Source: a bacterium
GTDB lineage: Bacteria > SAR324 > NAC60-12
Length of the DNA: 16,812 nt
NCBI GenBank assembly: GCA_965233585.1
Contig: CBDDTI010000679.1
Location: 1-16,812 of the forward strand
Reading direction: 5' to 3'
Shown here: positions 1 to 16,812 of the stretch, piece after piece
How the letters are laid out: each line of letters begins with the position of its first letter
How positions within the stretch are numbered: the first letter of the stretch is position 1
The notes under the pieces: model-generated
Seen by the model: only the letters and a program-made list of their open reading frames with translations
Database searches by the model: none
What the model was told of the DNA's origin: nothing
Program-made: the position numbers and the translations under genes

Positions 1-81
1 CACGGCCGCAGGCGCCGGCGCCGTGGTGGGAGCCACGGCGCGGAGCGACTCCAGGGCCATCTGCAGCTCGCTGCTCAAGTC
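1..81 (-). CDS. Host gene exon (DLSSELQMALESLRAVAPTTAPAPAAV..., runs off window)
   Basis: GC-rich, cag|G acceptor at 84-82, open in phase 0, matches the phase of exon 465-501. Confidence 0.75.
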
Positions 82-3000
82 CTGGGGATGCAAAAAAAGG
101 GGCCATTGAGAAACATATTTCAACTGGGAAGCACTGGGAATCTGAAATTTTGGGGAGATGTGACATGTAAATTTTCTATATATATATATCTATATGTGAT
201 ATGAATTCATATGACTGATGAATGTTTTTTGGGCAAATGTTCATGATCTGATCTGGCAGGACTTGAGGTTGTTGCAAATGAGCACTGACAAGCCTTAGAT
301 CAAGCCAATGGAGGGTTGAACAGAAGTGCGAATATCTCTTCAGGTGAACCTTACGGCCTTACAGCAATCACTTTTTTCAACATGCTCCGGCACATGAAAG
401 CCAATGACCAAACACCTAATAGGACCATACAGGACCTAACATGGCACATGATTTAACGCTGTGCCTTCTTTTTGGCTTCGATGTCGAGGGTTGTGGCCTT
501 CCTTAAGTGATGGAATCAGGTGATGTCACTGGCATAGAAAATCATAGAACCAGCCCCAGGATGCCCGTCAGCTTTGTCTTGGTGGATCATGAGATGGATC
601 CAAGATTCACATGTTCAAATGGTATGTATGCATATATATATATGATTATATATGTTTAATCTGTTTAATCTAATTTTGAATAGTTTTCAAATATAGATTA
701 TTGCACACTTTGCAGTTTGCAAACTCATGGCAACCGTTTGGTACAAGGATGGACGAGCAGCCCATTGTGGAGTTGAAGCGCCGCTGATGTGCGCAGTCCA
801 ACTTTCCCACATGTCCATCTAAAGTTCGAAAACGCTAAAAGCGACTGTCTCAGCAAGCTCTCGCAACCATTTTTGACACCAAAGAAAGCAAACCGGTTGG
901 TGCTCTCAACCCATCCTAACAAACATGTGTCAAATCTTTCCAATGGCAGTCAATGAAGAATACCCTCTGGTAAATTAACATAGACCCTGGCAGATAGGGG
1001 TTGGAAGACTAGTTTCCATTAAACATTGTTGATTTTCAGGGTCTATGTTTATTTACCAGAGGGTAACAGATTCGAAACAAGCAGCCTGGACCCTGTCTCC
1101 CGAAGCCAATCTCTGCTGAGTCTCTGCATGGAGGACATCAGTTCGCTACTTAGCGCACGTAGCTGCACCGAAGCCTCGTTGAAGGCGTCTGCGATGGCTT
1201 TCGATGCCTTGGGGCTGAAGATCGGTGGGGCTTTCCATCGTCAAAAAACATGGAACTAAGATGAACTAAGGCAAACCTCGAATCATTAATTACCTGCGGT
1301 TAATAGATATGTGAATAGTCTATACAAGTCTATCACAAGTTTTAAAGGTTCAAGGAATTACCTTACCTTCAGTCAATGTTGATGGAAGAAATCTGGGCAA
1401 TCGCCAAGCAGCTGCTGATTCGAACAATTTCCGGTGATCGACGCTACCCTGCAAAGACTGTGGACGACGTTACACACATGTGCACAAAATGTTGATAGAT
1501 TTGTGATTGCACGATTGAATCTTATCATTCCAATCTTTGGCAATATTGATCATGCATTAATATATGATAAGTTATCATTATTATATCTTATGCTTATGAA
1601 AATGCAGCAAATCAAAGTTTAAACCATGATACTTTTGCACTTTCTGTCAAATAGATATGGTTTTTTCATCAACATCGCAAGCTGCAGACCTGGTGTACCT
1701 GACTTGTCACGAGAGGCAAGGTCTGAGGCCTGCCAAGGGCGCATCATGGCGCATCAGTGGCAGCTTCAAATGTGCGAATGTTTGGAGACAGGTCGGTACA
1801 CATATTCTATATGTGGGTTTGACAAAAAAGGACGGAACACCCTCGAAAGGGCTGTTGAATAGAGGGAACATTTATATGAATTTATTTATGTATATACATG
1901 AAACCATATGAACATATCGGCGCGCAGGAAATTGATGATCAAACAAACATCAAAATTTGGAAGTGCACTGTTTTCATTTGCAAAGCCATATGCAAACGGA
2001 AGTATGAACACATCGGAAATTGGCTGGTGCCTTGCAGTCAATTTCTCTTGCGCTTTGCTGATGAGCTCACCTGCGACATATTTTTGCAATCCATACCTGG
2101 GTTGAGGTCCTCACCAGGACCCACCTCTGCATCCAACCTCAACAAACATCTGATCCGTCATTCCTTCATGTTCTTTCTGTTTCGTCATCAAAACATACCC
2201 TCTGGTAAACTAACATAACTATGGAAAATCACCATTTTTAATGGGAAAACTCACTATAAATGGCCATTTTCAATAGCTATGTTAAATTACCAGAGGGTAT
2301 CACCTTTTGGGCTGCCTGGAGCTTCATAGCCGCTCCACGTGGCAACTTCCCTGCGCCCTCTCGGACGGCTGGCCACTTCGGAAGGTGAACGACGACCTGC
2401 CACTTCGCAAGCCCCGGTAGGAAAATCATTGGGGATCCATGATATACCGATGATCATCTATGATCCTTCATGATTCTGTCTTTTTGGAATGGGAAGATAT
2501 GTAGAAAAGAAGCCGTCCATGCCATTGTCCAAAACATTGATAAAACAATTGTTAACAAATCAATCATTTAATTAGAAACTTGACTTACGCAAGCTGCGCA
2601 GCTGTACTCATCAAATTGGGGTAGAAACACTTTCGCCCAAATCCCTGTCACACTCAAAGAATTCACAGTATGCGCTTTTTGGTCAGATTCAACGATGCCT
2701 GCTGCAAAGACTTAAGCTGCGCAAATTGAAAACCATTTAACGTCACAATGCACCAACATGAAACGCACATGCCTTTACTGTCTCATATTTCACTGACCGC
2801 ACGTTCTGACATGTGGATGTTTGATTCAAAATTGCAACAATAATTATCCTTCTGATTCAGTTTTGTCGAAGGGCACCTTATCAACAGGGCATCAAGAGCT
2901 ACCAATACCAGTGGCCTGCCGTGGCAAGGTCCAAATGGAAGAGGTCCACATCCGCTTTCCGTGGGGAATCCTCCGAAGCAAACTCAAACTTTCAATGGAT

Positions 3001-6000
3001 GGACTTGAGGGAAAAACACACACACACACACTACAGATATCTAATATGATCTAATGATATCTACAGATCACTAAAGCATGGTTTCTACGCCCCAAATTTG
3101 TTTTTCGAATATCCTTCAAACATCTCAAACTCTGCAAGGAATCGCCGAAGCATTTTGAATCCGCCAAATCCGCTGCTCGATTCAAAGCTCTCCTCCTCCG
3201 TAAAGCTTGGTGCACTCTGACGCCTCAAGATGCGAGCAGCGGAACGTGATCATGCCATGGGGATGGTTTTTTTAATGTTGAACCCTCACAGAAATAGGAA
3301 TACAGTATTTCTGCTTCAAACATTTAGTTAATGCGTTTCGTCCCAGGAACCTAGAAAACTTGTTCTTTGCACTCCGACTCCGTATCAAAATTCTTAAAGA
3401 GAGGTCTAATTTCATAGAGTGGGGAGATGACAAAATCTCTCCTGCAACAACTGTTTATAAGATGTTATAAGTGTTCTATCACTTGTGACTCGGACTGCAC
3501 ACTTGATTTTCTGACAATGAAGCTCAGGCGGGAAAGGTCATTTGATGCGGACATGGAGTGATGATTTATCACTCTTCCACAATGCCTTATCGGTAGACCC
3601 ATCATCTGAACCATGAAATCTGATGAAACCAGGACACATCTTCAATTCAAGCTGTTCCAAGCGCTCTTCGACCGATGCCCCTTGGCAATTGATGTTCTCC
3701 ACCTGTCCACGAGATTGCCGGCTTGCACTTGGATCACAGGGTGGCGACTGCATCTATATGACATTGATAGAACATGGCGTGTGACATGTATGTTTTCATA
3801 TAATTAGTAGTTATTAGCTATATATGAACCAACTGGTTACTAGTGGTTACCATTGCTCAATATCTATTAATTAATGGCTACTGATTATCTATTGCAGTTC
3901 CCAGCACTGTATACAGTAAGAATTTCTTGTATAAGAAAATCAGGGGCTGGATTTGTTTCCCGCGTAGATGTTTTGTGGAATGTATATGCAAATGGAAAGT
4001 AAGAAATTGAGGGACCCCGGAATCTTCAAGCCAAAGAAATTCGGATGTTTGCGAAGAAACTGATGGGCACAAGAGATTGAGGGGCTGGATTTCTTAGCCA
4101 TGGTGTGATTTTAGAGACTAGCCATGACTAGCCATGACTAGCCTGGACACCTCCGTGAAAGAACTGGCTCCTACCCCTATCCCGTGAAAGGTTGCGGTTC
4201 CTACGCCTAAGGTTGCGGAGACTTTATGAACATCTATCTGCTCTTGTGTTTTGCCCTCTGATTGACTTTAATATCTGTAATCTAAATTTGGAATGACAGG
4301 CAAAATGCCGCATGAACCTGAAGCCAAGGCGCCGATATCCGTCAGCATGTTGGGAATCTTGGGTGTGTCATTGTATGCTACCCCTGGTGAACATCAAAAT
4401 AGCTGGTAAATGGATGTTCATCCCATTAAAAATGGTATTAATAGGTATTGATCCATACCTACATTAAGAAATTGCTAAGAAATTGAGGGACCCTCGACTG
4501 AAAAAAAGCACACACATACTCTTCAGTACATGGGCCCTTTCCGGACCAAGATTCTTATATAACGCTTGCGCTGTAATTAGTACACTTAATTAATGGTTAC
4601 TAACAATTACTAATGGTAATCTTCCTTACCATCTGGTTATTTAACATAGCCATGGAAAATGGCAATTTATAGATGGTTTACCGCTGGATCTTTCCATGGC
4701 TATGTTAGTCATAACCAGATGGTAATGTTTCGATGGTAAACAACAAACATCTCCCGTGTCGCCTCTTGAGCCGTTCGCACCAGCTCCTTGGCCAAATCCA
4801 AGATCACCGACTCGGCATTGGCGTGCTTCGCCTGCGCTTAATACATCCGAGATCTTGGGCAGCTGATGTTTTTCTGATATTTGTTGAAGGTGAATGGATC
4901 TTGCCAATCATGATATGATATTCATGATCAATGAGGTGAATCTGGGTCAGAATCCAACACTAAGAATAGGCTCGAGAAGCGAGCTTCATGCTCGATGGTC
5001 GTCCTCAAGTTCCGCCATGAACTTGCTCAACTGCCACTCCATCTGCAAAAGACCTGCCACGCAACAAGAAACAGCCATTTTTTGACACCTGTGCGACTCA
5101 GTGCTTCGGGCAGAGCATCTATAGTAATTCTTTACATATTCTCTCAGAGTACCTCTGCATATAGCAATTTATGGGTATATATATATTATATACTGTGTTT
5201 TGGATTTCCGTGTAGTATATATATATATATATCAGCATTGTGAAGATAGTATATAATGAAATGTAATAAACATATTGCTGAAGGTGGACATTGCACGGCA
5301 ATGTGGCTCTGATTGTTCAAGAAAACATCTTCATGGCAAACATCCAGTTTCCACAAATGTGTCACCACTTCCAGGTTCGTCATGGTAATTCCAGTCTCAG
5401 AATGATCACAATGTAAGTAGTTATAATCCAAGAAATGTCAAGGAAACCTGCTTTGGCACTTTGGCATAGTTGATTATAGTTGTGAGGTGTAGATCTATTT
5501 CAGCAAATTTCAGTACATTTCAATACATTTCAGTACATTTCAATACATTTCAATATATTCCTAGCTGATCAGCCATGGAAAGATTGGAAAGGGCTGGTTC
5601 TCCCATAGGCCATGGCTTCATCATGGCTTCCCCTCCCTTTTGGGTAGCCGCGTAGCCGCACCTTGAACCTGGTATGGCCGACCAGCTTCAATCTGCTCTC
5701 GAATCTTGCTCCTGAAAATTGGGAAATATTGCCATTCGCGTATACTGACAAATCACTGCACCTACAGCTGTCAGCATTAAAACTGCAACTCTGTCCATTT
5801 GATTGATTGCTCATTGCTTGTCAATTCTGGAACGATGTTACAAGGACATGGAGGAGCGAACATTTCAAGTACAGGTTCAGTTCTTGACTCTTTGCTGCCC
5901 AGACTCTGTTCCGACCAAAGGCGTTGTATGTCCTGAGATCACCCAGGCCCACGTTGCCCGTGTTGCTTTCATGGCTTCATGGCAGTCTGATGATGACTCT

Positions 6001-7936
6001 AAACAGCTTACGCATGTTGTCTCGACAGCTGGGTCGACATTTATTTATGCAACCACGGACCATGACCACAATCCAAACATGCCAACAAATGCAATGAATG
6101 CATCAGGCAGGTTGTGCCTATATATATTTGATCACACAAGCACATCCCCTCCAATAGTGCTAATGATATCTCATACCCACAACACATGGTAAACAAATAT
6201 AGCACAAGTGCCACTTTTATCCATGATTGGGTGGCAAAATAGCAGTTATATCATTTTTACATGTCATTTCAATACATATATCATACTTATATTATTTTAT
6301 AATCTATAATGCATTAATTCTATGATATCTATAATTCTATTAGCACATTCTAATAGCATACTTGTTGTGGGATCTTGTGTTTTTTTGAGGGTCTAGATAT
6401 CCACAAAACATCCCAAAACCATGGCCGGGGAACTGGGGGAACGTCCACGTGATTTCTCACCGAGCGTCACAGCCGCGAATCTTTCGGGTGACTTTGGTGG
6501 TGGCCTTGGGCTTCAAGCTCTTGGTCGCCTCCGAGGTGCGATGTTTGGAAGGATTGTAAATTGTACTGTACAAAGTGTCTTAAAGTCTTTCCAATCTCAG
6601 TTCTACTTCCCTTAACAGATCTTGAAACATCTGAAGTGTGTCTCCAATATTTGGAGAATGTCGCACCGCCAGGCAAAACGGATCTTCGCAAAACGAACTG
6701 GTACATGACACGGAAGGGCGTCCTGCATCAAAGGCTCTGCAGGTTCTTTCCTCCGGAAAGGCACCTTCCAATGACATGGTGTCGATTGGTTTGGGGAGAC
6801 GTGTTGGAAACTCTTGGAAACTCCAGCTTCGGAGAGGACTGGAAGAGTGCTAAACTGGATGTCCCATCGGTCAAGGTGTCCAAGTCCAGGCGTACAAATC
6901 AACATAAACATACTAAAACTGTAGTCTTAGACTGTCTTAGATTGTCTTTAGATGTTGAACTCAATCTCCATCTTTTGTCAAGAAGACACAAAAGAAAACA
7001 CATTGATTGAATAGATTTGAATAGTATTAAACATCTCTGTGAACTGCTCCAGGGTACCTGCCGCATTACTTTCAGCCTCGGCATCGCTGCTGCGACAACT
7101 TGAACTTGGACCCATCCTTGTGGAATCACCAGAGGTCGGTGGCACCTCATGGTTCAAGCGCCCAATGGAATTGAAACGGCAACAGAGTCGGCAACAGAGT
7201 CGCAGAAAACATCAGTCAATGGACTCCATATGACTCCATGATCAGTCTGACTTGGGGATCTGGTCGGCATAGGCATCTCTGGTCAATCAGCTGTTTGGAT
7301 ATGTTTGGATGTTTGTTTCAGGATCTACGTCACTAACTCGAAAAACTCTGCAACACTTTGCCAAAAGATTCAAGGCCTCGCCTCATCCATTGCAACTTGC
7401 CGAAGACCGGCTGGGAGATGGGGAAGGTTGTAATGAATCAGCTGAGAAAAAATGCCACGGTATGTCACAGCATCACAAAATGTGTCAACATGTCGACATC
7501 TTTGCGGGACCTCAGCATTCACTGTGCGAATTGTAGGTAAGCAGCAATATATCTTCAGGCAACGTCTTTAGTACTAACTTGTACGGCAAGTATACCTGCC
7601 ACACTGATCACTAAAATCTTTACAGCTGTCCTTTTTTTGCAACTAAACTTCAAGAAGCTAATCCCGGGTGTTCCACTTCTGAAACAGTGTCAAATTCCCA
7701 GCAAATCAAAGGTAGCCTTTCCACATTTCGAACGTGTAAACACTTGGTCTCAAATTCTGGCATTGCAAGGGTCAAACTTGCTGGTCCCCCCAAAAAAAAC
7801 AATTAAAAACTGCAAAAGGATGCAAAAGGGACAACCGTTTTGTGGGTCCATTGGTTCCCAGCAGCCGCACAGCTGTTGACTCTTGACCTCCGATGCACTG
7901 CGCGGCAGCACTTTGGACTCCAGAGGTCTGGGTGGC
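1..7936 (-). CDS. Multi-exon host protein-coding gene (partial; continues beyond base 1 and probably has further 5' exons); product unknown
   Basis: Series of 37-122 nt GC-richer islands bounded on the minus strand by AG|G acceptors and AG|GT, AG|GC or AG|GA donors. Several consecutive exons join in phase without stops. The 2070 to 1 chain reads GELISKAQEKLTAR-PQTLPLVTSQVHQ-GSVDHRKLFESAAAWRLPRFLPSTLTEGK-ASKAIADAFNEASVQLRALSSELMSSMQRLSRDWLRETGSR-KATTLDIEAKKK-DLSSELQMALESLRAVAPTTAPAPAAV. No family recognised; some middle exons are unresolved. Confidence 0.7.
465..501 (-). CDS. Host gene exon (KATTLDIEAKKK)
   Basis: aag|G acceptor, AAG|gc donor, 37 nt. Phase 2 in and phase 0 out fit both neighbours. 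Confidence 0.7.
961..1065. mobile_element. Intronic MITE, TA-flanked
   Basis: 29-bp terminal inverted repeat TACCCTCTGGTAAATTAACATAGACCCTG (961-989) versus 1037-1065 with 1 mismatch; TA at both ends. Confidence 0.85.
1086..1207 (-). CDS. Host gene exon (ASKAIADAFNEASVQLRALSSELMSSMQRLSRDWLRETGS)
   Basis: aag|G acceptor, CAG|gc donor, 122 nt, open, phase 0 to 2. Confidence 0.75.
1362..1448 (-). CDS. Host gene exon (GSVDHRKLFESAAAWRLPRFLPSTLTEGK)
   Basis: cag|G acceptor, AAG|gtaat donor, 87 nt, phase 0 to 0. Confidence 0.65.
1690..1729 (-). CDS. Host gene exon (PQTLPLVTSQVHQ)
   Basis: cag|G acceptor, CAG|gt donor, 40 nt, phase 2 to 0. Confidence 0.6.
2031..2070 (-). CDS. Host gene exon (ELISKAQEKLTA)
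   Basis: cag|G acceptor, AAG|gc donor, 40 nt, phase 1 to 2. Confidence 0.65.
2196..2299. mobile_element. Intronic MITE, TA-flanked
   Basis: Ends TACCCTCTGGTAA...TAACATA and TATGTTA...TTACCAGAGGGTA. Same termini as 961-1065 with a different interior. Confidence 0.85.
2316..2396 (-). CDS. Host gene exon (81 nt; frame ambiguous)
   Basis: GC-rich island with cag|G acceptor and CAG|gc donor. Open in two frames; the phase-1 frame (RRSPSEVASRPRGRREVATWSGYEAP) fits the next exon. Confidence 0.55.
3586..3702 (-). CDS. Host gene exon (VENINCQGASVEERLEQLELKMCPGFIRFHGSDDGSTDK)
   Basis: cag|G acceptor, AAG|gc donor, 117 nt, lies within ORF 3538..3753. Confidence 0.55.
4116..4143 (+). repeat. 10-bp tandem repeat (GACTAGCCAT) x2.8
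   Basis: Read directly. Confidence 0.85.
4379..4459. repeat. Probable short interspersed repeat or MITE fragment
   Basis: Begins TACCCCTGGT like the MITE ends and has an internal dyad TGAACATC...GATGTTCA. No matching second terminus seen. Confidence 0.4.
4627..4724. mobile_element. Intronic MITE, TA-flanked
   Basis: TIR TACCATCTGGTTAT-TAACATAGCCATGGAAA versus TTTCCATGGCTATGTTA-ATAACCAGATGGTA; related to the other two MITEs. Confidence 0.85.
4763..4831 (-). CDS. Host gene exon (AKHANAESVILDLAKELVRTAQE)
   Basis: cag|G acceptor, GAG|gc donor, 69 nt, phase 0 to 0, helical-looking peptide. Confidence 0.65.
5004..5053 (-). CDS. Host gene exon (LLQMEWQLSKFMAELE)
   Basis: cag|G acceptor, GAG|ga donor, 50 nt. 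Phase 1 to 0 fits both neighbours. Confidence 0.6.
5497..5559 (+). repeat. 10-bp tandem repeat (ATTTCARTAC) x~6
   Basis: Read directly; CAG and CAA variants alternate. Confidence 0.85.
5662..5711 (-). CDS. Host gene exon (SKIREQIEAGRPYQVQ)
   Basis: cag|G acceptor, AAG|gt donor, 50 nt, phase 2 to 1. Confidence 0.6.
6610..6722 (-). CDS. Candidate host gene exon (RPSVSCTSSFCEDPFCLAVRHSPNIGDTLQMFQDLLR)
   Basis: cag|G acceptor; phase 1 entry fits exon 7058-7145. Donor position uncertain. Confidence 0.4.
7058..7145 (-). CDS. Host gene exon (VPPTSGDSTRMGPSSSCRSSDAEAESNAA)
   Basis: gag|G acceptor, CAG|gt donor, 88 nt, phase 0 to 1. Confidence 0.55.
7888..7936 (-). CDS. Host gene exon (PPRPLESKVLPRSASE)
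   Basis: cag|G acceptor, GAG|gt donor, 49 nt, phase 2 to 0. Confidence 0.55.
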
Positions 7937-8815
7937 CTGGAGTAGTTCCCAAATCTTCCCACTGGTGTTAGGGCGTCGCAAACGACTGCTTCAAAATTTA
8001 GACATTTGAAATGGCATGTATATAAATAATTGATCCCCCTTGCAATTCAGTGTGAAGGTCGCGCTCGCACCCCCTGATTCTGTAAGCACAAAGCTGGGGC
8101 CTGACCCTCAGACAGGGGTGCCCATCATTACAAAATCAAAGGTACCAGACCATTCCTAGCATGGTTATCATTACAAAATCAAGACTGAACATGTATTTTT
8201 CAATAAAAAGGCGAAAAATAGGATAACTTGAAACAACACCCAAAAACCACACAAGTCAGCTTCTGGGGCCTCTTTTCCTTGAGCCAAAATTAGTAACATT
8301 CGAGGAGGTGAAAACCGACCCTTGTGGCTGGAATTCTTCTGTGCCCCCCTCCTACGAGAATGTTCGCCTGCAAGCTACGGCATATGCTGGCCAAACACTG
8401 CGGTGGCAAGACTTGGTGACCTAAGGGTTCTTGCTGCATGAGACCTGGCTTGGACAAATATGCTCCTAAGGAACCTATACATTGACCAAGGACAAGTGTG
8501 GGATATGGACAGGACATGCGCTTTAGGAAGTTTGGCCTGTTCGTCTTTGGTGCTGCGGCCGCTGCTCCCACCACGCATGGATGACAGTGCTAACATACTA
8601 GTGAGAACTGATCTCATATTCCAACTTAATTTTTGGAAATACAAGGCATTTGGCTGACAGGGCGCGGAATGAACCGCGGCTCTCTGCCGTTTGCAACATG
8701 CAATTCCTCTTGCAACTTTGGTCCCTACCAAGGAGTGGCCAAAATGGCCTTCCAACACAAGAACTGATCAAGGCTGGCTCAACAAGGAAATGGGTCTATT
8801 TCGGGCATTGGTATG

Positions 8816-11458
8816 CTATTTCTTTTCTTTGCAAGGGTCAAAAACTCCAATCATGTCCAAGGCTGCCGTCCACTTGTGGACCTCCAAGCATTTCGTGAAT
8901 ACGTCTGCAGCCTGTTGCTCTGTCGGGCAATGTTGGATGCTGATATCCGGCTCTTTGAACGCATCATAAAGCCCCTGGACATTTATTTTGTGGGTTTTAC
9001 CTAAATGTCTTAGGCGAGCAGAGTATCCATTTTTAATTACTTGTATGGTGGCAGTATTATCTTGGTGACATGTTAATGGAATTGCACTTCCAAGCAACTC
9101 TGACAAAAACTGTTGCGCAGGGATCGCATCATGAAACAGAGCAGTGGCCAGGGCTATGGCCTCGGCCTCTGTGGTTGAACGACTGCATGTTGTCTGCCGT
9201 TTCGACTGGAACGAAATAGGGAAAAGGATGAACCACCTGAGATCACAAGAGCCTGAAGTTGAGTAACCATGGTCTGCCTTTGATGCATGGTCAGCATCCG
9301 TGAATAACCACAGGTTCCATTCAGCATCTGGATCTAGTTTCAACCTCATCCTATATTGTTTTGTTCCATGAAGGTAGCTGAATACCCTGAACAAACGCCT
9401 GTCATCATTTTTACTCCATTTCGTTATCCTTTTACTTAACTCATTCAGCGCATGAAGCAAGTCAGGCCGGCTAAGCCTTGCAAGCCAGTAAGCTTTCATG
9501 ATCAGCTTTGCCGCTGAGTTGGCTAAGTTACCCTGGCTGTCCCAATCTTCTACCGGCAACGAACTTTCATCAAGATAAGGGGTTGAAGCCTTCTTGATGC
9601 CTTTGAAGTCCTTGCATTCTTGCTCATATAGTTTGCACGTGACATCAGCAAACTCGTGCATGTCTAGCTGGACCTCTCCCTCCTTAATCAAGTGAGTCCT
9701 GCCTAGGACTTTTGAGACATCTTGTGGTGGTTCGAAATGAAGATGGCTGGACAATTCATCCCAAAACTGCTGATGATTCTGGCTTGGGCCTGAAACAACT
9801 ATGTCATCTACGTAAAGTGTGACCAGCAGTCCTAAACGCTCAACGACAAAGTTTGATGGAAACAATGGAGATTCAACTCCGCCTAGCAAATCCATTATTG
9901 ACTTAAACTTCAAACCCCAGTGTCCTCCCGACTCCGGGTGCCCGTACAACGATTTGTGGAGCTTAGTGCATGGGCGGTGCATCCATTTGAGATGGCCAGG
10001 AGCCAACTCTTCAGGCAACTCGATGTACGTGTCATTTTCTGTTTGAAGGTCTCTCTGGATGTAAGCCTTGATCACATCGCTTTGAGATGTTTTGTTTCCT
10101 CTTTTCAGGCCGAACGCCAGATTTATGTTCAATCCAGCAATGGTTGTTGGAATGATCTTGATTTCTTGGAATTCGCTGGCTAAACCAAACTCGTCACGAA
10201 CATTGTTACCAAGAAATACAATTCTGGCCTTGAGCCGCTTCTCTTCTGCTGATTCGGCATTCTTTCAACTCATGATTGTCATGAGACGTCCGATAGCAAC
10301 CTTAGTTCCACTTTGCCTGGCTTGACGCTCTAAATCGTGCCTTTGGATCACATGCTTGTAATCCCATGTTCCAGCTTCGATCAACCCTTGAGCTTCCTTC
10401 TTGGCTTCATTTACTGCAGCTGGATCACTTTTCCAGACTTTCTTGTCGATAAGCTCATGAATGCCAAGAGGAATTTGTTCAGGCTCAACTTCTTTTGGAA
10501 CGTGCACTGGCTCTTCAGTTGTTGGCACGCAGCTCATGCTAGGGACAAATTTGTGGAACAAGTCGGGGAACAACGATGACATGATGCTTTCGCACATCTG
10601 CGTTGGATAGAATGCTGAGTTTGGAGTTTTGGAACCACACAATGGCACATGCTTGTGGTCATGGCTGCATGTCTTGGTTCTCAAGCATCGGATTAAACTG
10701 TCATCTGTTGATGCAACAGTCCAAGGTTTGAAAGAATCTCCTCCTACAAAATGGTTCGAGTTAAAGAAGTCCTGAAGTTCCTGCAACTGCCAACCAGAGC
10801 ATCCTGAGGGCCACTCGAAATGAACCCTAGCTCCACGTTTCAGGATGATTTTGGCAAACTGGAAAAAGAACCGAAGGAGTTTCTTGCTCTCTAATCTCTG
10901 TGCCATCAATCTCCTACGAAATTCTGGACCCAACCTTCTCCAGTTAAGGCGTTGCCAACTCGACCAAGGATTGCAAGGAATCGATCCCCAAAGATCAACA
11001 CCGTTCATTGCATCTGAGTCTAAAACTTCGAGAAGTTGTGATTGCACTTCAAGCTCTGCAACATTACCATTGGCTTTGGTAAGGCGAATGTGTTTCACAC
11101 CAATAGATTCCGACGCCTTTCCAAGATTGGATTGAGGGCTACAACAAAACTCAATCATAGTACCATAAGCTGGCAACAATTTCTGGGCAGATTTCTTTCC
11201 CTTCTTTCCACCCTGGATGGGGCGCGGCAATGCCTGCTGCTCTCCACCCTTTGCGTCAAAAGCGCCACTCGGAACTTCATCGGCCTCAGGCAGAAGTTGG
11301 AAGATGGTCTTTCCAGTCCAGAACTCTTTCAATGTTTTGTTGTTCCCTTTCCAATGCTCATTAGTGATGGTTTCCTCACTACCGCTCTCAAAGTACTTTA
11401 CTTCGGTTATTCTAGCCCCAAGTCTTTTGGCTTTCACGGGAAGATCATCGAGACGAGT
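8816..11458 (-). pseudogene. Copia pol polyprotein fragment: WTGxTxF module - C5-MTase-like domain - reverse transcriptase - RNase H; one in-frame TGA at 10265-10267
   Basis: ORFs 10265..11437 and 8816..10132 are in the same frame. The 44 codons between them read KNAESAEEKRLKARIVFLGNNVRDEFG... (copia KARLV motif). RT motifs: QSDVIKAYIQ, KSLYGHPESG, LYVDD, SRPDL. RNase H motifs: FTDADHA, STSG, SKRQ..SRSTTEAE, HQDN, QAADVFTK. Confidence 0.92.
10580..11158 (-). other. C5 cytosine DNA methyltransferase-like domain within the copia polyprotein
   Basis: Ordered motifs: MIEFCCS (motif I-like, degenerate), DLWGSIPC (motif IV, catalytic PC, Cys codon 10973-10975), HFEWP (motif VI, ENV/ENP-like), KPW (motif VIII position), SAFYPTQMCESI (motif X-like). 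Recognised by eye; no HMM was run. Confidence 0.65.
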
Positions 11459-11510
11459 GTGTTACCACTTTATAAACGTTAATTTCTCAACCATTTTTTG
11501 AAATGTTGTA

Positions 11511-11596
11511 ACCATTTTATAAAAAATATTGCTTACCATTTTATAAAAAATATTGCCTACCATTTTATAAAAAAGTATTGCTTATCATTTTAAAAA
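11511..11596 (+). repeat. 24-bp AT-rich tandem repeat (ACCATTTTATAAAAAATATTGCTT) x~3.5
   Basis: Copies start at 11511, 11535, 11559 and 11584 (partial). Confidence 0.9.
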
Positions 11597-11769
11597 GATA
11601 AATTTATAATATTTTCTATTTTAAGTTTTCTTGGCGTGAATCTACATTTATTTGTTTTGAAGGCCCCAAAGTAAATTACAATGGCATGTGAAGAGTAACT
11701 GAGATGCCAGCATACTTTGGACAATAGAACTTTTCTGCGGCATAATCGTGCCGGGCAGGTTCTCGAATG

Positions 11770-14700
11770 TTGTATTTTGCCCAGAATGCTTTTTTTTGTA
11801 TGTATTTTGCCGAAACCTCTACGCATTCTCCATTGTATTTTGCCCAGAATGCTTTTTTTTGTATGTATTTTGCCGAAACCTCTACGCATTCTCCATTGTA
11901 TTTTGCCCAGAATGCTTTTTTTTTGTATGTATTTTGCCGAAACCTCTACGCATTCTCCATTGTATTTTGCCCAGAATGCTTTTTTTGTATGTATTTTGCC
12001 GAAACCTCTACGCATTCTCCATTGTATTTTGCCCAGAATGCTTTTTTTTGTATGTATTTTGCCGAAACCTCTACGCATTCTCCATTGTATTTTGCCCAGA
12101 ATGCTTTTTTTTTGTATGTATTTTGCCGAAACCTCTACGCATTCTCCATTGTATTTTGCCCAGAATGCTTTTTTTTGTATGTATTTTGCCGAAACCTCTA
12201 CGCATTGCATTCTCCATTGTATTTTGCCCAGAATGCTTTTTTTGTATGTATTTTGCCGAAACCTCTACGCATTCTCTATTGAATTTTGCCCAGAATGCTT
12301 TTTTTTGTATGTATTTTGCCGAAACCTCTACGCATTCTGCATTGTATTTTGCCCAGAATGCTTTTTTTTGTATGGATTTTGCCGAAACCTCTACGCATTC
12401 TCCATTGTATTTTGCCCAGAATGCTTTTTTTTGGTATGTATTTTGCCGAAACCTCTATGCATTCTCCATTGTATTTTGCCCAGAATGCTTTTTTTTGGTA
12501 TGTATTTTGCGGAAACCTCTACGCATTCTCCATTGAATTTTGCCCAGAATGCTTTTTTTTTGTATGTATTTTGCCGAAACCTCTACGCATTCTCCATTGT
12601 ATTTTGCCCAGAATGCTTTTTTTTTGTATGTATTTTTCCCGAAACCTCTACGCATTCTCCATTGTATTTTGCCCAGAATGCTTTTTTTTGGTATGTATTT
12701 TGCCGAAACCTCTACGCATTCTCCATTGTATTTTGCCCAGAATGCTTTTTTTTTGTATGTATTTTGCCGAAACCTCTACGCATTCTCCATTGTATTTTGC
12801 CCAGAATGCTTTTTTTTGTATGTATTTTGCCGAAACCTCTACGCATTCTCCATTGAATTTTGCCCAGAATGCTTTTTTTTGTATGTATTTTGCCGAAACC
12901 TCTACGCATTCTCCATTGTATTTTGCCCAGAATGCTTTTTTTTGTATGTATTTTGCCGAAACCTCTACGCATTCTCCATTGTATTTTGCCCAGAATGCTT
13001 TTTTTTTGTATGTATTTTGCCGAAACCTCTACGCATTCTCCATTGTATTTTGCCCAGAATGCTTTTTTTTTGTATGTATTTTGCCGAAACCTCTACGCAT
13101 TCTCCATTGTATTTTGCCCAGAATTCTTTTTTTTGTATGTATTTTGCCGAAACCTCTACGCATTCTCCATTGTATTTTGCCCAGAATGCTTTTTTTTAAA
13201 TGTATTTTGCCGAAACCTCTATTCTTTTCTCCATTGCAGGTTGCCTCAAATGCCTTTTTTTCTTTTGAAAAAATAAATTGTTTTCCTGTGAATTTTGCCT
13301 AAACTTCTAAGCTTTTCTGCATTGTATCTTACCCCAAATGCAATTTTTCTCCATTGTATTTTGCCCAGAATGCATTTTTTTTTGTATGTATTTTGCCGAA
13401 ACCTCTACGCATTCTCCATTGTATTTTTGCCCAGAATGTTTTTTTGTATGTATTTTGCCGAATGCTTTTTTTGGTATGTATTTTGCCGAAACCTCTACGC
13501 ATTCTCCATTGTATTTTGCCCAGAATGCTTTTTTTTGTATGTATTTTGCCGAAACCTCTAGGCATGCTCCATTGTATTTTGCCCAGAATGCTTTTTTTGG
13601 TATGTATTTTGCCGAAACCTCTACGCATTCGAATGCTTTTTTTGTATGTATTTTGCCGAAACCTCTACGCATTCTCCATTGTATTTTGCCCAGAATGCTT
13701 TTCTTTTGTATGTATTTTGCCGAAACCTCTACGCATTCTCCATTGTATTTTGCCCAGAATGCTTTTTTTGTATGTATTTTGCCGAAACCTCTACGCATTC
13801 TCCATTGTATTTTGCCCAGAATGCTTTTTTTGTATGTATTTTGCCGAAACCTCTACGCATTCTCCATTGTATTTTGCCCAGAATGCTTTTTTTTGTATGT
13901 ATTTTGTCGAAACCTCTACGCATTCTCCATTGTATTTTGCCCAGAATGCTTTTTTTGTATGTATTTTGCTTTTTTTTGTATGTATTTTGCCGAAACCTCT
14001 ACGCATTCTCCATTGTATTTTGCCCAGAATGCTTTTCTTTTGTATGTATTTTGAAACCTCTACGCATTCTCCATTGTATTTTGCCCAGAATTTTTTTTTG
14101 TATGTATTTTGCCGAAACCTCTACGCATTCTCCATTGTATTTTGCCCAGAATGCTTTTTTTGGTATGTAGAAACCTCTACGCATTCTCCATTGTATTTTG
14201 CCCAGAATTCTTTTTTTTTGTATGTATTTTGCCGAAACCTCTACGCATTCTCCATTGTATTTTGCCCAGAATGCTTTTTTTTGTATGTATTTTGCCGAAA
14301 CCTCTACGCATTCTCCATTGTATTTTGCCCAGAATGCTTTTTTTTTGTATGTATTTTGCCGAAACCTCTACGCATTCTCCATTGTATTTTGCCCAGAATG
14401 CTTTTTTTGTATGTATTTTGCCGAAACCTCTACGCATTCTCCATTGTATTTTGCCCAGAATGCTCTTTTTTTGTATGTATTTTGCCGAAACCTCTACGCA
14501 TTCTCCATTGTATTTTGCCCAGAATGCTTTTTTTGTATGTATTTTGCCGAAACCTCTACGCATTCTCCATTGTATTTTGCCCAGAATGCTTTTTTTTGTA
14601 TGTATTTTGCCGAAACCTCTAGGCATGCTCCATTGTATTTTGCCCAGAATGCGAATGCTTTTTTTTGTATGTATTTTGCCGAAACCTCTACGCATTCTCC

Positions 14701-16812
14701 ATTGTATTTTGCCCAGAATGCTTTTTTTTGTATGTATTTTGCGGAAACCTCTACGCATTCTCCATTGTATTTTGCCCAGAATGCTTTTTTTTGTTTTTTT
14801 TCCGAAACCTCTACGTATGTATTTTGCCGAATGCTTTTTTTGTATGTATTTTGCCGAAACCTCTACGCATTCTCCATTGTATTTTGCCCAGAATGCTTTT
14901 TTTTTGTATGTATTTTGCGGAAACCTCTACGCATTCTCCATTGTATTTTGCCCAGAATGCTTTTTTTTGTATGTATTTTGCCGAAACCTCTACGCATTCT
15001 CCATTGTATTTTGCCCAGAATGCTTTTTTTTTTGTATGTATTTTGCCGAAACCTCTACGCATTCTCCATTGTATTTTGCCCAGAATGCATTTTTTTTTGT
15101 ATGTATTTTGCCGAAACCTCTACGCATTCTCCATTGTATTTTGCCCAGAATGCTTTTTTTTGGTATGTATTTTGCCGAAACCTCTACGCATTCTCCATTG
15201 TATTTTGCCCAGAATGTGTTTTTTTTGTATGTATTTTGCGGAAACCTCTACGCATTCTCCATTGTATTTTGCCCAGAATGGTTTTTTTGGTATGTATTTT
15301 GCCGAAACCTCTACGCATTCTCCATTGTATTTTGCCCAGAATGCCCTTTCTTGTATGTATTTTGCCGAAACCTCTACGCATTCTCCATTGTATTTTGCTC
15401 AGAATGCGTTTTTTTGGTATGTATTTTGCCGAAACCTCTACGCATTCTCCATTGTATTTTGCCCAGAATTCCTATATATGCCAGATTTTTTTTGGTATGT
15501 ATTTTGCCGAAACCTCTACGCATTCTCCATTGTATTTTGCCCAGAATGCTTTTTTTTTTGTATGTATTTTGTCGAAACCTCTACGCATTCTCCATTGTAT
15601 TTTGCCCAGAATGCTTTTTTTTTGTATGTATTTTGCCGAAACCTCTACGCATTCTCCATTGTATTTTGCCCAGAATGCTTTTTTTTTGTATGTATTTTGC
15701 CGAAACCTCTATGCATTCTCCATTGTATTTTGCCCAGAATGCTTTTTTTTTGTATGTATTTTGCCGAAACCTCTACGCATTCTCCATTGTATTTTGCCCA
15801 GAATGCTTTTTTTTTGTATGGATTTTTGCCGAAACCTCTACGCATTCTCCATTGTATTTTGCCCAGAATGCTTTTTTTTGGTATGTATTTTGCCGAAACC
15901 TCTACGCATTCTCCATTGTATTTTGCCCAGAATGCTTTTTTTTGTATGTATTTTGCGGAAACCTCTACGCATTCTCCATTGTATTTTGCCCAGAATGCTT
16001 TTTTTTTGTATGTATTTTGCCGAAACCTCTACGCATTCTCCATTGTATTTTGCCCAGAATGCTTTTTTTGTATGTATTTTGCCGAAACCTCTACGCATTC
16101 TCCATTGTATTTTGCCCAGAATGCTTTTTTTTTGTATGTATTTTGCCGAAACCTCTACGCATGCTCCATTGTATTTTGCCCAGAATGCTTTTTTTTGTAT
16201 GTATTTTGCCGAAACCTCTACGCATTCTCCATTTTGCCCAGAATGCTTTTTTTTGTATGTATTTTGCCGAAACCTCTACGCATTCTCCATTGTATTTTGC
16301 CCAGAATGCTTTTTTTGGTATGTATTTTGCCGAAACCTCTAGGCATGCTCCATTGTATTTTGCCCAGAATGCTTTTTTTTGTATGTATTTTGCCGAAACC
16401 TCTACGCATTCGAATGCTTTTTTTTGTATGTATTTTGCCGAAACCTCTACGCATTCTCCATTGTATTTTGCCCAGAATGCTTTTCTTTTGTATGTATTTT
16501 GCCGAAACCTCTACGCATTCTCCATTGTATTTTGCCCAGAATGCTTTTTTTTGTATGTATTTTGCCGAAACCTCTACGCATTCTCCATTGTATTTTGCCC
16601 AGAATGCTTTTTTTTTGTATGTATTTTGCCGAAACCTCTACGCATTCTCCATTGTATTTTGCCCAGAATTTTTTTTTTGTATGTATTTTGCGGAAACCTC
16701 TACGCATTCTCCATTGTATTTTGCCCAGAATGCTTTTTTTTGTATGTATTTTGCCGAAACCTCTACGCATTCTCCATTGTATTTTGCCCAGAATGCTTTT
16801 TTTTTGTATGTA
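11770..16812 (+). repeat. Satellite/minisatellite array, 62-65 bp unit TTGTATTTTGCCCAGAATGC(T)7-10GTATGTATTTTGCCGAAACCTCTACGCATTCTCCA, about 80 copies, runs off window
   Basis: Near-identical head-to-tail units differing mainly in poly-T length; degenerate segment at ~13197-13350. Confidence 0.98.

Follow-up and report, generated by a model that had tools for sequence, protein, structure and literature searches.

A domain with the predicted fold of C5 cytosine methyltransferases in the Pol of a dinoflagellate Ty1/copia lineage

Retrotransposon-borne methyltransferases and the copia domain

Retrotransposons that carry DNA methyltransferases (DNMTs) are, to our knowledge, a recent and rare discovery. 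The present analysis concerns a stretch of 16,812 nucleotides (contig CBDDTI010000679.1 of assembly GCA_965233585.1, filed under the bacterial lineage SAR324; hereafter the window), the minus strand of which holds a remnant of a Ty1/copia-type pol gene. Upstream of the reverse transcriptase (RT) of this remnant lies a domain that very probably has the fold of C5 cytosine methyltransferases and is remotely homologous to them. The copia lineage bearing the domain is a very large dinoflagellate Ty1/copia lineage, and the domain is almost certainly an integral part of its Pol, in the order integrase, domain, RT and RNase H.

The known cases were reported by de Mendoza et al. (2018, PMC5890265), who searched with the Pfam family PF00145 and found DNMTs in long interspersed nuclear elements (LINEs) and DIRS elements of Symbiodinium and in a Gypsy element of Klebsormidium. 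The DNMT domains inside the Pol of the Symbiodinium DIRS elements methylate CG de novo. Of Copia, the superfamily that is most abundant in Symbiodinium, the accessible portions of that article say that it 'lacks any DNMT domain'. This agrees with an earlier note on the window made from its letters alone (the sequence-only reading), which had given LINE, DIRS and gypsy elements rather than copia as the known carriers. SymbioLINE-Dnmt, SymbioDIRS-Dnmt3 and KnitGypsy-Dnmt3, as presented in the same portions, likewise encode a C5-methyltransferase fold within a retrotransposon, inside Pol in the DIRS and Gypsy cases. The known retrotransposon DNMTs also resemble the copia domain in being old, in evolving under purifying selection and in occurring in Symbiodiniaceae genomes. 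They are, however, detectable with PF00145 and keep the key residues, whereas the copia domain is invisible to PF00145, has neither FxGxG nor a target recognition domain (TRD), and sits in Ty1/copia elements between integrase and RT.

Two further sources touch on the subject. A 2026 preprint (10.64898/2026.05.21.726589) treats the known transposon-borne DNMTs together with chromovirus-type 'EpiLTRs' of Cymbomonas and Euglena, and the word copia is absent from its accessible part. Another article (PMC12344493) speaks, in the excerpt available, of DNMT3 'embedded' in 'LTR Copia and DIRS' elements and cites the 2018 paper; we take this as referring to canonical DNMT3 domains and not to the copia domain. 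The literature found, as far as its accessible text extends, supports the view that the domain has not been described in copia elements of Symbiodiniaceae.

The domain also occurs, without being annotated, in a heat-activated element already published from a coral symbiont. SmTCL1-4 are Ty1-copia-like, heat-activated elements of Symbiodinium microadriaticum (Chen et al., PMC5776459), among which SmTCL3 has recently expanded; it has full-length copies with long terminal repeats (LTRs), while the window copy is a fragment. The features that Chen et al. list for the SmTCL elements, in the accessible text, are integrase, RT, RNase H and LTRs only. When the reference row of supplementary file 2 of that article was translated by eye, SmTCL3 was found to carry the domain in frame just upstream of the authors' RT stretch, at about 6475–7275 of the element. 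By eye its motifs read V-E-Y-A-L-D-P-V-S in the first loop, L-K-V-L-R-L-S, D-L-W-I-S-L-P-S-S-P-W-S, G-R-V-V-F-E-W-P-A-A-C-K-G-W and V-R-F-D-S-C, followed by a Cys/His stretch and a helix. The RT start of SmTCL3 resembles that of P0011, one of the relatives described below, and that of SmTCL1 looks like a different copia lineage.

Conservation and architecture of the domain family

The translation of nt 11158–10580 on the minus strand of the window runs for 193 residues with no stop, and IEFCC, DLWGSIPC, HFEWP, KPW and SAFYPTQMCESI occur in it in this order. It was on these five motifs that the sequence-only reading had founded a methyltransferase-like domain upstream of RT. Their order has held, and each of them falls on a highly conserved column of the family. 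The extent given to the domain, though indeed free of stops, is a little short, since the family profile (positions 1–222) covers nt 11173–10520.

Word-indexed searches returned five relatives of similar length and five longer ones. A family profile (A1) made from six domain sequences was scored against 1.84 billion representatives and gave 4865 matches at E ≤ 1e-3, of which 1912 reach E ≤ 1e-10 and 187 reach E ≤ 1e-30; the 4865 family representatives are clusters at 50% identity. Column conservation was counted on 162 aligned domain rows. The motif columns are the best conserved in the family. Glu of IEFCC is found in 115 of 116 rows, and the Pro and Cys of the Pro-Cys pair in 134 and 141 of 149. 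Glu, Trp and Pro of E-W-P occur in 153 of 155, 148 of 155 and 153 of 154 rows, so that the Pro-Cys and the Glu singled out by the earlier reading are conserved across the family. Lys, Pro and Trp of K-P-W are present in 132 of 137, 87 of 137 and 122 of 138 rows, and Tyr of Y-P in 107 of 109. Other conserved positions are S15, R30, a G-G before the E-W-P strand, F-D-G-C and a Cys/His pair.

Full-length relatives have the order CCCH gag, rve integrase, domain, RVT_2 and an RNase H-like tail. For instance, P0009 (1517 residues) and P0011 (1942 residues) start with gag-like and integrase regions, which are followed by the domain, RT and the RNase H-like tail. Pfam detected RVT_2 in 10, rve in 3 and zf-CCCH in 6 of 27 family proteins. 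The rve match lies upstream of RVT_2 in P0009 and P0062, and in P0002, P0007, L020 and L021 the domain comes after an integrase-like tail. The position between integrase and RT that had been proposed from the window is thereby borne out by the full-length relatives. One relative, P0010, is named Cladocopium goreaui by its source. P0008 and P0010 are Pol fragments inside long chimeric gene models, one of them called 'Ankyrin-3' in Cladocopium goreaui, which suggests that pieces of the transposon have been annotated as host genes.

L020 (1–4548) and L021 (1–3469) are two short contigs met in a scan of prokaryote-labelled genomes, in a bin labelled uncultured actinobacterium; they are probably eukaryotic contigs placed in the wrong bin. 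Both have an integrase tail, a zinc-finger-like motif, the domain, RT and an RNase H-like part. In L020 these form a single open frame of 1225 residues from the integrase tail to the RNase H-like part, and L021 is frameshifted inside the domain.

In a comparison of ten polyproteins, the domain and RT show similar degrees of conservation. Identity between the window and P0011 is 30% in the domain versus 33% in RT; the corresponding values are 33% versus 25% for the window and P0044, and 35% versus 29% for P0044 and P0134. Upstream of the domain, identity is 8–39% among divergent polyproteins and 81% between the window and P0007. For L020 and L021, one pair only, the proportion of nonsynonymous differences (pN) is 0.217 in the domain, 0.167 in RT and 0.277 in the linker. 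The synonymous proportion (pS) of this pair is saturated (0.76–0.79; 0.79 in the domain), and raw pN/pS was used instead of Nei-Gojobori dN/dS. The domain, almost certainly an integral part of the copia Pol, has diverged together with RT under purifying selection.

A conserved zinc-finger-like motif, P-G-C-x2-C ... H-x3-C-R-x-R-F, lies between the integrase tail and the domain. It was noticed in all full-length relatives seen (P0002, P0007, P0009, P0011, L020 at about 370–520, and L021) and falls outside the window owing to the truncation of the remnant. The upstream region was also considered as an obligate partner of the domain or as its TRD. This idea was dropped in view of the 8–39% identity and a low-complexity replacement of the region in L020.

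Predicted fold, phage relatives and possible activity

The fold was modelled with AlphaFold2 on the intact domain of P0007, which is 82% identical to that of the window, from an alignment of 56 rows. The model (pLDDT 95.5, pTM 0.91) is an alpha/beta sandwich with strands at 4–8, 26–30, 59–62, 116–121, 142–147 and 158–163, in which the Pro-Cys follows the third strand and the Glu ends the fourth. When Foldseek compared it with the PDB, C5 cytosine methyltransferase entries made up 38 of the 40 rows listed, as the sequence-only reading would have it; they comprise DNMT3A/3B/3L complexes, EhMeth, DNMT2, M.HaeIII, M.HhaI and DNMT1. The rows listed have E values of 6e-4 to 2e-2, template-modelling (TM) scores by query of 0.35–0.49 and identities of 9–14%, and the remaining two are FtsJ-type RNA methyltransferase contexts. 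Against the predicted viral structures of BFVD there were 12 matches at E ≤ 1e-3, and the named ones are mostly C5 methyltransferases. The top two are proteins of 210 and 218 residues with TM-scores of 0.64–0.67, one of them a 'putative cytosine DNA methyltransferase' of Tetraselmis virus 1. The third is a 'putative DNA methylase' of Lactococcus phage P087 (E 5e-5, TM 0.49–0.51). Feature searches in the Atlas, taken as leads only, gave, at a score of 0.80, a cluster in which 13% of the members carry PF00145 and, at 0.86, small phage clusters, in one of which 73% do. A reading of the conserved Cys and His as a cysteine-protease or amidotransferase-type pair was dropped, no such fold being found among the Foldseek rows listed.

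The canonical PF00145 enzymes (M.HhaI, M.HaeIII, Dcm, DNMT1, DNMT3A/B and DNMT2) share with the copia domain the fold and the order of strands and loops, with Pro-Cys after beta4, Glu ending beta5 and a basic residue at beta7. They differ from it in length, 270–330 residues as compared with about 215, and the copia domain has no FxGxG, no motif II acid and no TRD.

The sequence link to these enzymes passes through a family of small phage proteins. Gp15 of P087 (212 residues) belongs to phrog_2882 with E 1.3e-60, and its match to PF00145 is only E 0.022, below the cut-off. Gp15 and eight phage proteins annotated 'putative C5 methylase', including MAV1 MarMP, were aligned as A4. Another alignment, A3, holds 12 true C5 methyltransferases, namely Dcm, two close Dcm homologues and nine phage enzymes; the 120 matches listed in the Dcm homologue search were at least 74% identical, and diversity for the profile was sought in phage records. 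The hhalign match of A4 to A3 (probability 92.6%, E 4.6e-7) brings motifs I, IV and VI into register. A copia profile of 154 rows in turn matches A4 with E 3.7e-4, probability 36% and a score of 32.7 over 173 columns, and the match is collinear over 162–173 columns in two profiles. As controls for the 154-row match, reversed A4 scored 14.8 and 30 column shuffles scored 7.8–18.7. The copia and A4 sequences pair S-L-P-C-T-P-W-S with S-P-P-C-E-S-W-S, F-E-W-P..G-W with I-E-N-P...W, K-P-W with K-P-T, and the C-terminal Y-P..M...I with I-P..L...I.

The closest relatives of the copia domain are these small viral 'putative C5 methylases' without a TRD, and the domain forms a subfamily of its own, in keeping with the distinct subfamily suggested from the window. 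The proteins of phrog_2882 (P087 gp15, MAV1 MarMP, streptococcal and enterococcal proteins and, by fold, that of Tetraselmis virus 1) are likewise single domains, of about 210–270 residues. Their motifs follow the order seen in the copia domain: a beta1 strand whose loop has Ser as its last residue, then D-L-x-x-S-x-P-C-x-x-W-S, E-x-P-x(4)-W, K-P-T/W and, in the C-terminal helix, P..L/M...I. Foldseek aligns the two with TM-scores of 0.49–0.67. The phage proteins, however, stand alone and mostly keep G-x-G (F-D-S-G-N-G-S) and P-P-C/E-N-P, whereas the copia domain lies inside Pol, has C-C-S-P-D-S for the glycines and E-W-P for E-N-P, and has an added conserved Cys/His cluster. An article on 936-type phage methyltransferases (PMC4190342) deals with adenine methyltransferases and holds, in its accessible part, nothing on the small C5-like family.

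With the model and the phage family, the motifs of the window, all on the minus strand, can be placed. IEFCC (nt 11141–11155) corresponds to strand beta1 and the start of the motif I-equivalent loop, where the window reads E-F-C-C-S-P-Q-S and the family E-F-C-C-S-P-x-S. DLWGSIPC (nt 10973–10996) covers strand beta4 (59–62 in the model, followed there by S-L-P-C) and then the Pro-Cys, the putative counterpart of motif IV. HFEWP (nt 10808–10822) is the end of strand beta5 (116–121), with its Glu as the putative counterpart of motif VI (ENV), FEWP being aligned to IENP and IENP to ENV. The two-step profile chain, the predicted fold and the strand positions support this assignment of the Pro-Cys and Glu, which had been claimed as retained. 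KPW (nt 10721–10729) places its Lys at the start of strand beta7, aligned with KPT of the phage family, and this Lys may be equivalent to the arginines of motif VIII. SAFYPTQMCESI (nt 10583–10618) forms the C-terminal helix (199–209) in the place of motif X and is aligned with S..IP..L...I of the phage family. Between KPW and this helix, a C-x-H-x-H-x-H stretch (nt 10649–10669) holds the family's conserved Cys (125 of 129 rows) and His (113 of 120). Together with the Cys after EWP and a Cys lost from the window by deletion, it may make up a candidate zinc site; C-C-C-H occurs at profile positions 125, 150, 178 and 184 in 73 of 117 rows.

Several results count against a relationship with C5 methyltransferases. 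The PF00145 match to which the sequence-only reading had looked did not appear: Pfam gave nothing for the first frame of the window or for the 193-residue piece at E ≤ 1, and PF00145 was found in none of the 27 family proteins at E ≤ 0.01 and in none of 56 members at E ≤ 10. A PDB sequence search of the 193-residue piece returned no chain at E ≤ 10, and a PDB profile search of the domain returned nothing relevant. Compared with A3 by hhalign, the domain family reached a probability of 0.2–0.3% in local, low-mact and global modes, and forced long alignments were not collinear on the motifs; against Dcm alone the probability was 1.4%, with motif IV to motif IV as the sole match. The copia profile of 56 rows matched A4 at E 0.013 and a probability of 3.4%, the phrog_2882 hidden Markov model (HMM) found by hmmscan 1 of 56 copia members at E 0.06, and the profile link from the copia to the phage family is modest. 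The TM-scores against the PDB are all below 0.5. If the order of the motifs had arisen by chance in a domain unrelated to methyltransferases, both these scores and the want of a direct profile signal to PF00145 or the 12 true enzymes would be accounted for. Such a coincidence is very improbable, since C5 methyltransferases, among all folds, fill nearly all of the PDB rows listed and most of the named BFVD rows, small viral C5-methylase-like proteins reach the TM-scores of the top BFVD matches, and the collinear phage-family match scores above all 30 of 30 shuffles. A domain of C5-methyltransferase fold has been hidden from Pfam in a copia lineage with thousands of clusters, where it is conserved like RT. 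HMM-based surveys of epigenetic domains in transposons miss such diverged members, which structure prediction recovers.

As regards activity, we incline slightly to the view that most family members are enzymes. That they carry out cytosine-5 methylation of the element's DNA, dependent on S-adenosylmethionine (SAM), is a tentative proposal from the sequence to which we give somewhat less than an even chance. After reverse transcription, the domain would bind the element's own nucleic acid. With assistance from the Glu that ends beta5 and from the beta7 Lys, the Cys after beta4 would attack C6 of cytosine; methylation of C5 would follow, with SAM as the presumed methyl donor and the element's DNA as the presumed substrate. 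New copies would then carry the mark on entering the CG-hypermethylated host genome, a logic that has been proposed in print for the Dnmt3-carrying DIRS elements. If the domain is active, a large share of the transposon copies in these hypermethylated genomes encode a cytosine-modifying activity of their own, which bears on the making of the unusual dinoflagellate methylome and on the escape of transposons from it or their exploitation of it.

The cofactor side of the domain speaks against methylation, together with several other observations. Motif I had been called odd from the window, and F.G.G is indeed found in none of 110 family rows; G.G occurs in one of the 110, and 11 of them have a Gly anywhere within profile positions 9–15. 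The loop reads E-F-C-C-S-P-D-S instead (E 111/112, C 97/115, S 114/116). In C5 methyltransferases an acidic residue at the end of beta2 (motif II) binds the ribose of SAM; beta2 of the copia domain ends in R-L-T, with Arg in 127 of 133 rows, outside the hhalign match and equivalent to motif II by strand position only. The model, in which about 35 residues separate strand 158–163 (beta7) from the C-terminal helix, leaves no room for a TRD in a domain of about 215 residues. The nucleophile Cys is replaced by His in P0005, and P0011 has Thr-Cys. SmTCL3 has, by eye, Ser for the Cys and E-Q-C for K-P-W, so that transposition, over a short time at least, can do without the Cys. Finally, the element in the window has an observed/expected CpG ratio of 0.58, much like the 0.62 of its flank, which gives no sign of element-specific methylation.

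Much of this would be expected of a pseudoenzyme, in which the methyltransferase fold serves Pol as a non-catalytic module for binding nucleic acid or protein. In the manner of the inactive partners DNMT3L and DNMT3B3, it might keep hold of the cDNA, recognise modified bases or flip them out, guide integration or bring in enzymes of the host. The missing F.G.G, the Arg at the motif II position, the lack of a TRD and the absence of PF00145 from all 56 members fit such a module. So does the Ser for Cys and Glu for Lys, read by eye, in the recently expanded and heat-activated SmTCL3, and the best PDB rows are chains of DNMT3A2-DNMT3B3 complexes. We nevertheless regard it as rather unlikely, though well worth considering. 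Inactive relatives such as DNMT3L are without these Cys, Glu and Lys residues, but 116 of 127 rows of the copia family have all three. Strong conservation is also seen at the residues standing in for the SAM loop (E 111/112, S 114/116 and, at beta2, R 127/133), which suggests that a pocket has been retained. If the domain is inactive, or performs another chemistry, it would be an example from nature of a methyltransferase core that has been retained for a different purpose.

Catalytic-side motifs that are kept, and cofactor-side motifs that are replaced by other conserved residues, would also suit a different chemistry, in which the same Cys attacks a pyrimidine without SAM. C5 methyltransferases have SAM-free side reactions, namely deamination and the addition and removal of aldehydes. 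The domain might add or remove another one-carbon group, or catalyse exchange at C5/C6 or deamination; its target might be the modified bases of dinoflagellates, 5-methylcytosine (5mC), 5-hydroxymethylcytosine (5hmC) and 5-hydroxymethyluracil (5hmU), and its effect to counter silencing by the host. In a preprint on Amphidinium, as far as its accessible text goes, transposons of this dinoflagellate, Copia among them, bear 5hmU and 5mC as repressive marks, and lowering 5hmU leads to more of their transcripts. We consider a SAM-free reaction doubtful. No evidence for such a substrate or cofactor was found, the phage relatives are annotated as methylases and partly keep G-x-G (F-D-S-G-N-G-S), and SmTCL3 is without the Cys. 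A more specific form, with slightly poorer prospects still, would be a working enzyme that keeps the cytosine-attacking half, has its SAM pocket swapped for the conserved E, C-C, S and R, and removes or exchanges C5 groups on 5mC, 5hmC and 5hmU. If this were true, the most abundant retrotransposons of Symbiodiniaceae would edit the silencing modifications of their host.

The substrate might alternatively be RNA. As an RNA cytosine-5 methyltransferase of the DNMT2 kind, the domain would act on the element's genomic RNA or its tRNA primer and not on cDNA. EhMeth, a DNMT2 homologue, and human DNMT2 stand at ranks 9 and 40 of the PDB rows listed, and the lack of a TRD fits a substrate without sequence specificity. 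RNA methylation was raised by the authors themselves for the LINE-borne DNMT (PMC5890265, accessible portions). However, the DNMT2 rows do not rank above those of DNMT3 and bacterial DNA methyltransferases, and the doubts about the cofactor are the same, which makes an RNA target improbable.

The remnant in the window and its surroundings

The pol of the window occupies nt 11461–8816 of the minus strand as two adjoining open frames in one phase, 11461–10265 and 10264–8816, with the stop codon at 8818–8816. It is a 5′-truncated Ty1/copia-type remnant with the tail of the variable region, the methyltransferase-fold domain, a linker, RT and an RNase H-like tail. Homology to the relatives begins at about nt 11452. 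The tail of the poorly conserved region between integrase and domain (nt 11174–11461) reads DDLPVKAKRLG... and matches P0002 and P0007. It is followed by the compact domain without TRD (nt 10520–11173), which is defective in this copy. The copia-type RT (nt 9641–10246) was detected by Pfam as RVT_2 (PF07727) in residues 7–208 of a 482-residue piece, with E 1.4e-9 and 38.4 bits against a cut-off of 31.6; with the order seen in the full-length relatives, this bears out the earlier assignment of the pol to Ty1/copia. The RNase H-like C-terminal part (nt 8819–9640) has no Pfam match, and its name comes from where it lies and from how it aligns with full-length relatives; it is 67% identical to P0009 over 231 columns.

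The domain had been described as fused in frame with RT. The phase is the same, but a TGA at nt 10267–10265 breaks the frame between them, where relatives have Trp (P0007 and P0009: ...MSWKNAES). In addition, 9 residues are deleted between HFEWP and KPW, with the junction at 10748|10747 (nt 10745–10750). The stretch is present in P0002, P0003 and P0007, and P0004 has the same deletion. It comprises a core strand (142–147 in the relative's model) and the conserved G-C of F-D-G-C (G 138/145, C 142/145). Because of the 5′ truncation, the in-frame TGA and the loss of 9 core residues, the window copy is a dead fragment that cannot work. The remnant has no gag, protease, integrase or 5′ LTR, since homology to the relatives ends at about nt 11452–11461. 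No direct repeat of at least 40 nt that could represent LTRs was found within nt 1–11800; an LTR pair is not to be expected in the window, since satellite DNA replaces the 5′ part.

The satellite extends over at least 5 kb (nt 11770–16812), running off the window, and is built of 63/64-bp tandem units with a higher-order unit of 126–127 bp. Its copies are 84–97% alike, with a marked excess of T on the plus strand (AT skew about -0.4). A 24-bp tandem repeat of 3.8 copies (nt 11511–11600) stands between the satellite and the retrotransposon remnant, and the 5′ end of the element is apparently cut off at the junction with this repeat and the satellite. On the other side of the remnant, none of the open frames of at least 90 residues in nt 1–8800 looks gene-like by eye, no library search of them having been made. 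Short tandem repeats of 10–12 bp lie in non-coding-looking sequence at nt 5497–5559, 4116–4143 and 7177–7202. A near-perfect hairpin is located at nt 2195–2300, with arms of 49 nt that are 84% complementary and a loop of 8 nt. The arm sequence occurs twice more, inverted, within 4 kb (nt 1013–1065 and 4627–4682), which gives it the look of a foldback element or a miniature inverted-repeat transposable element.

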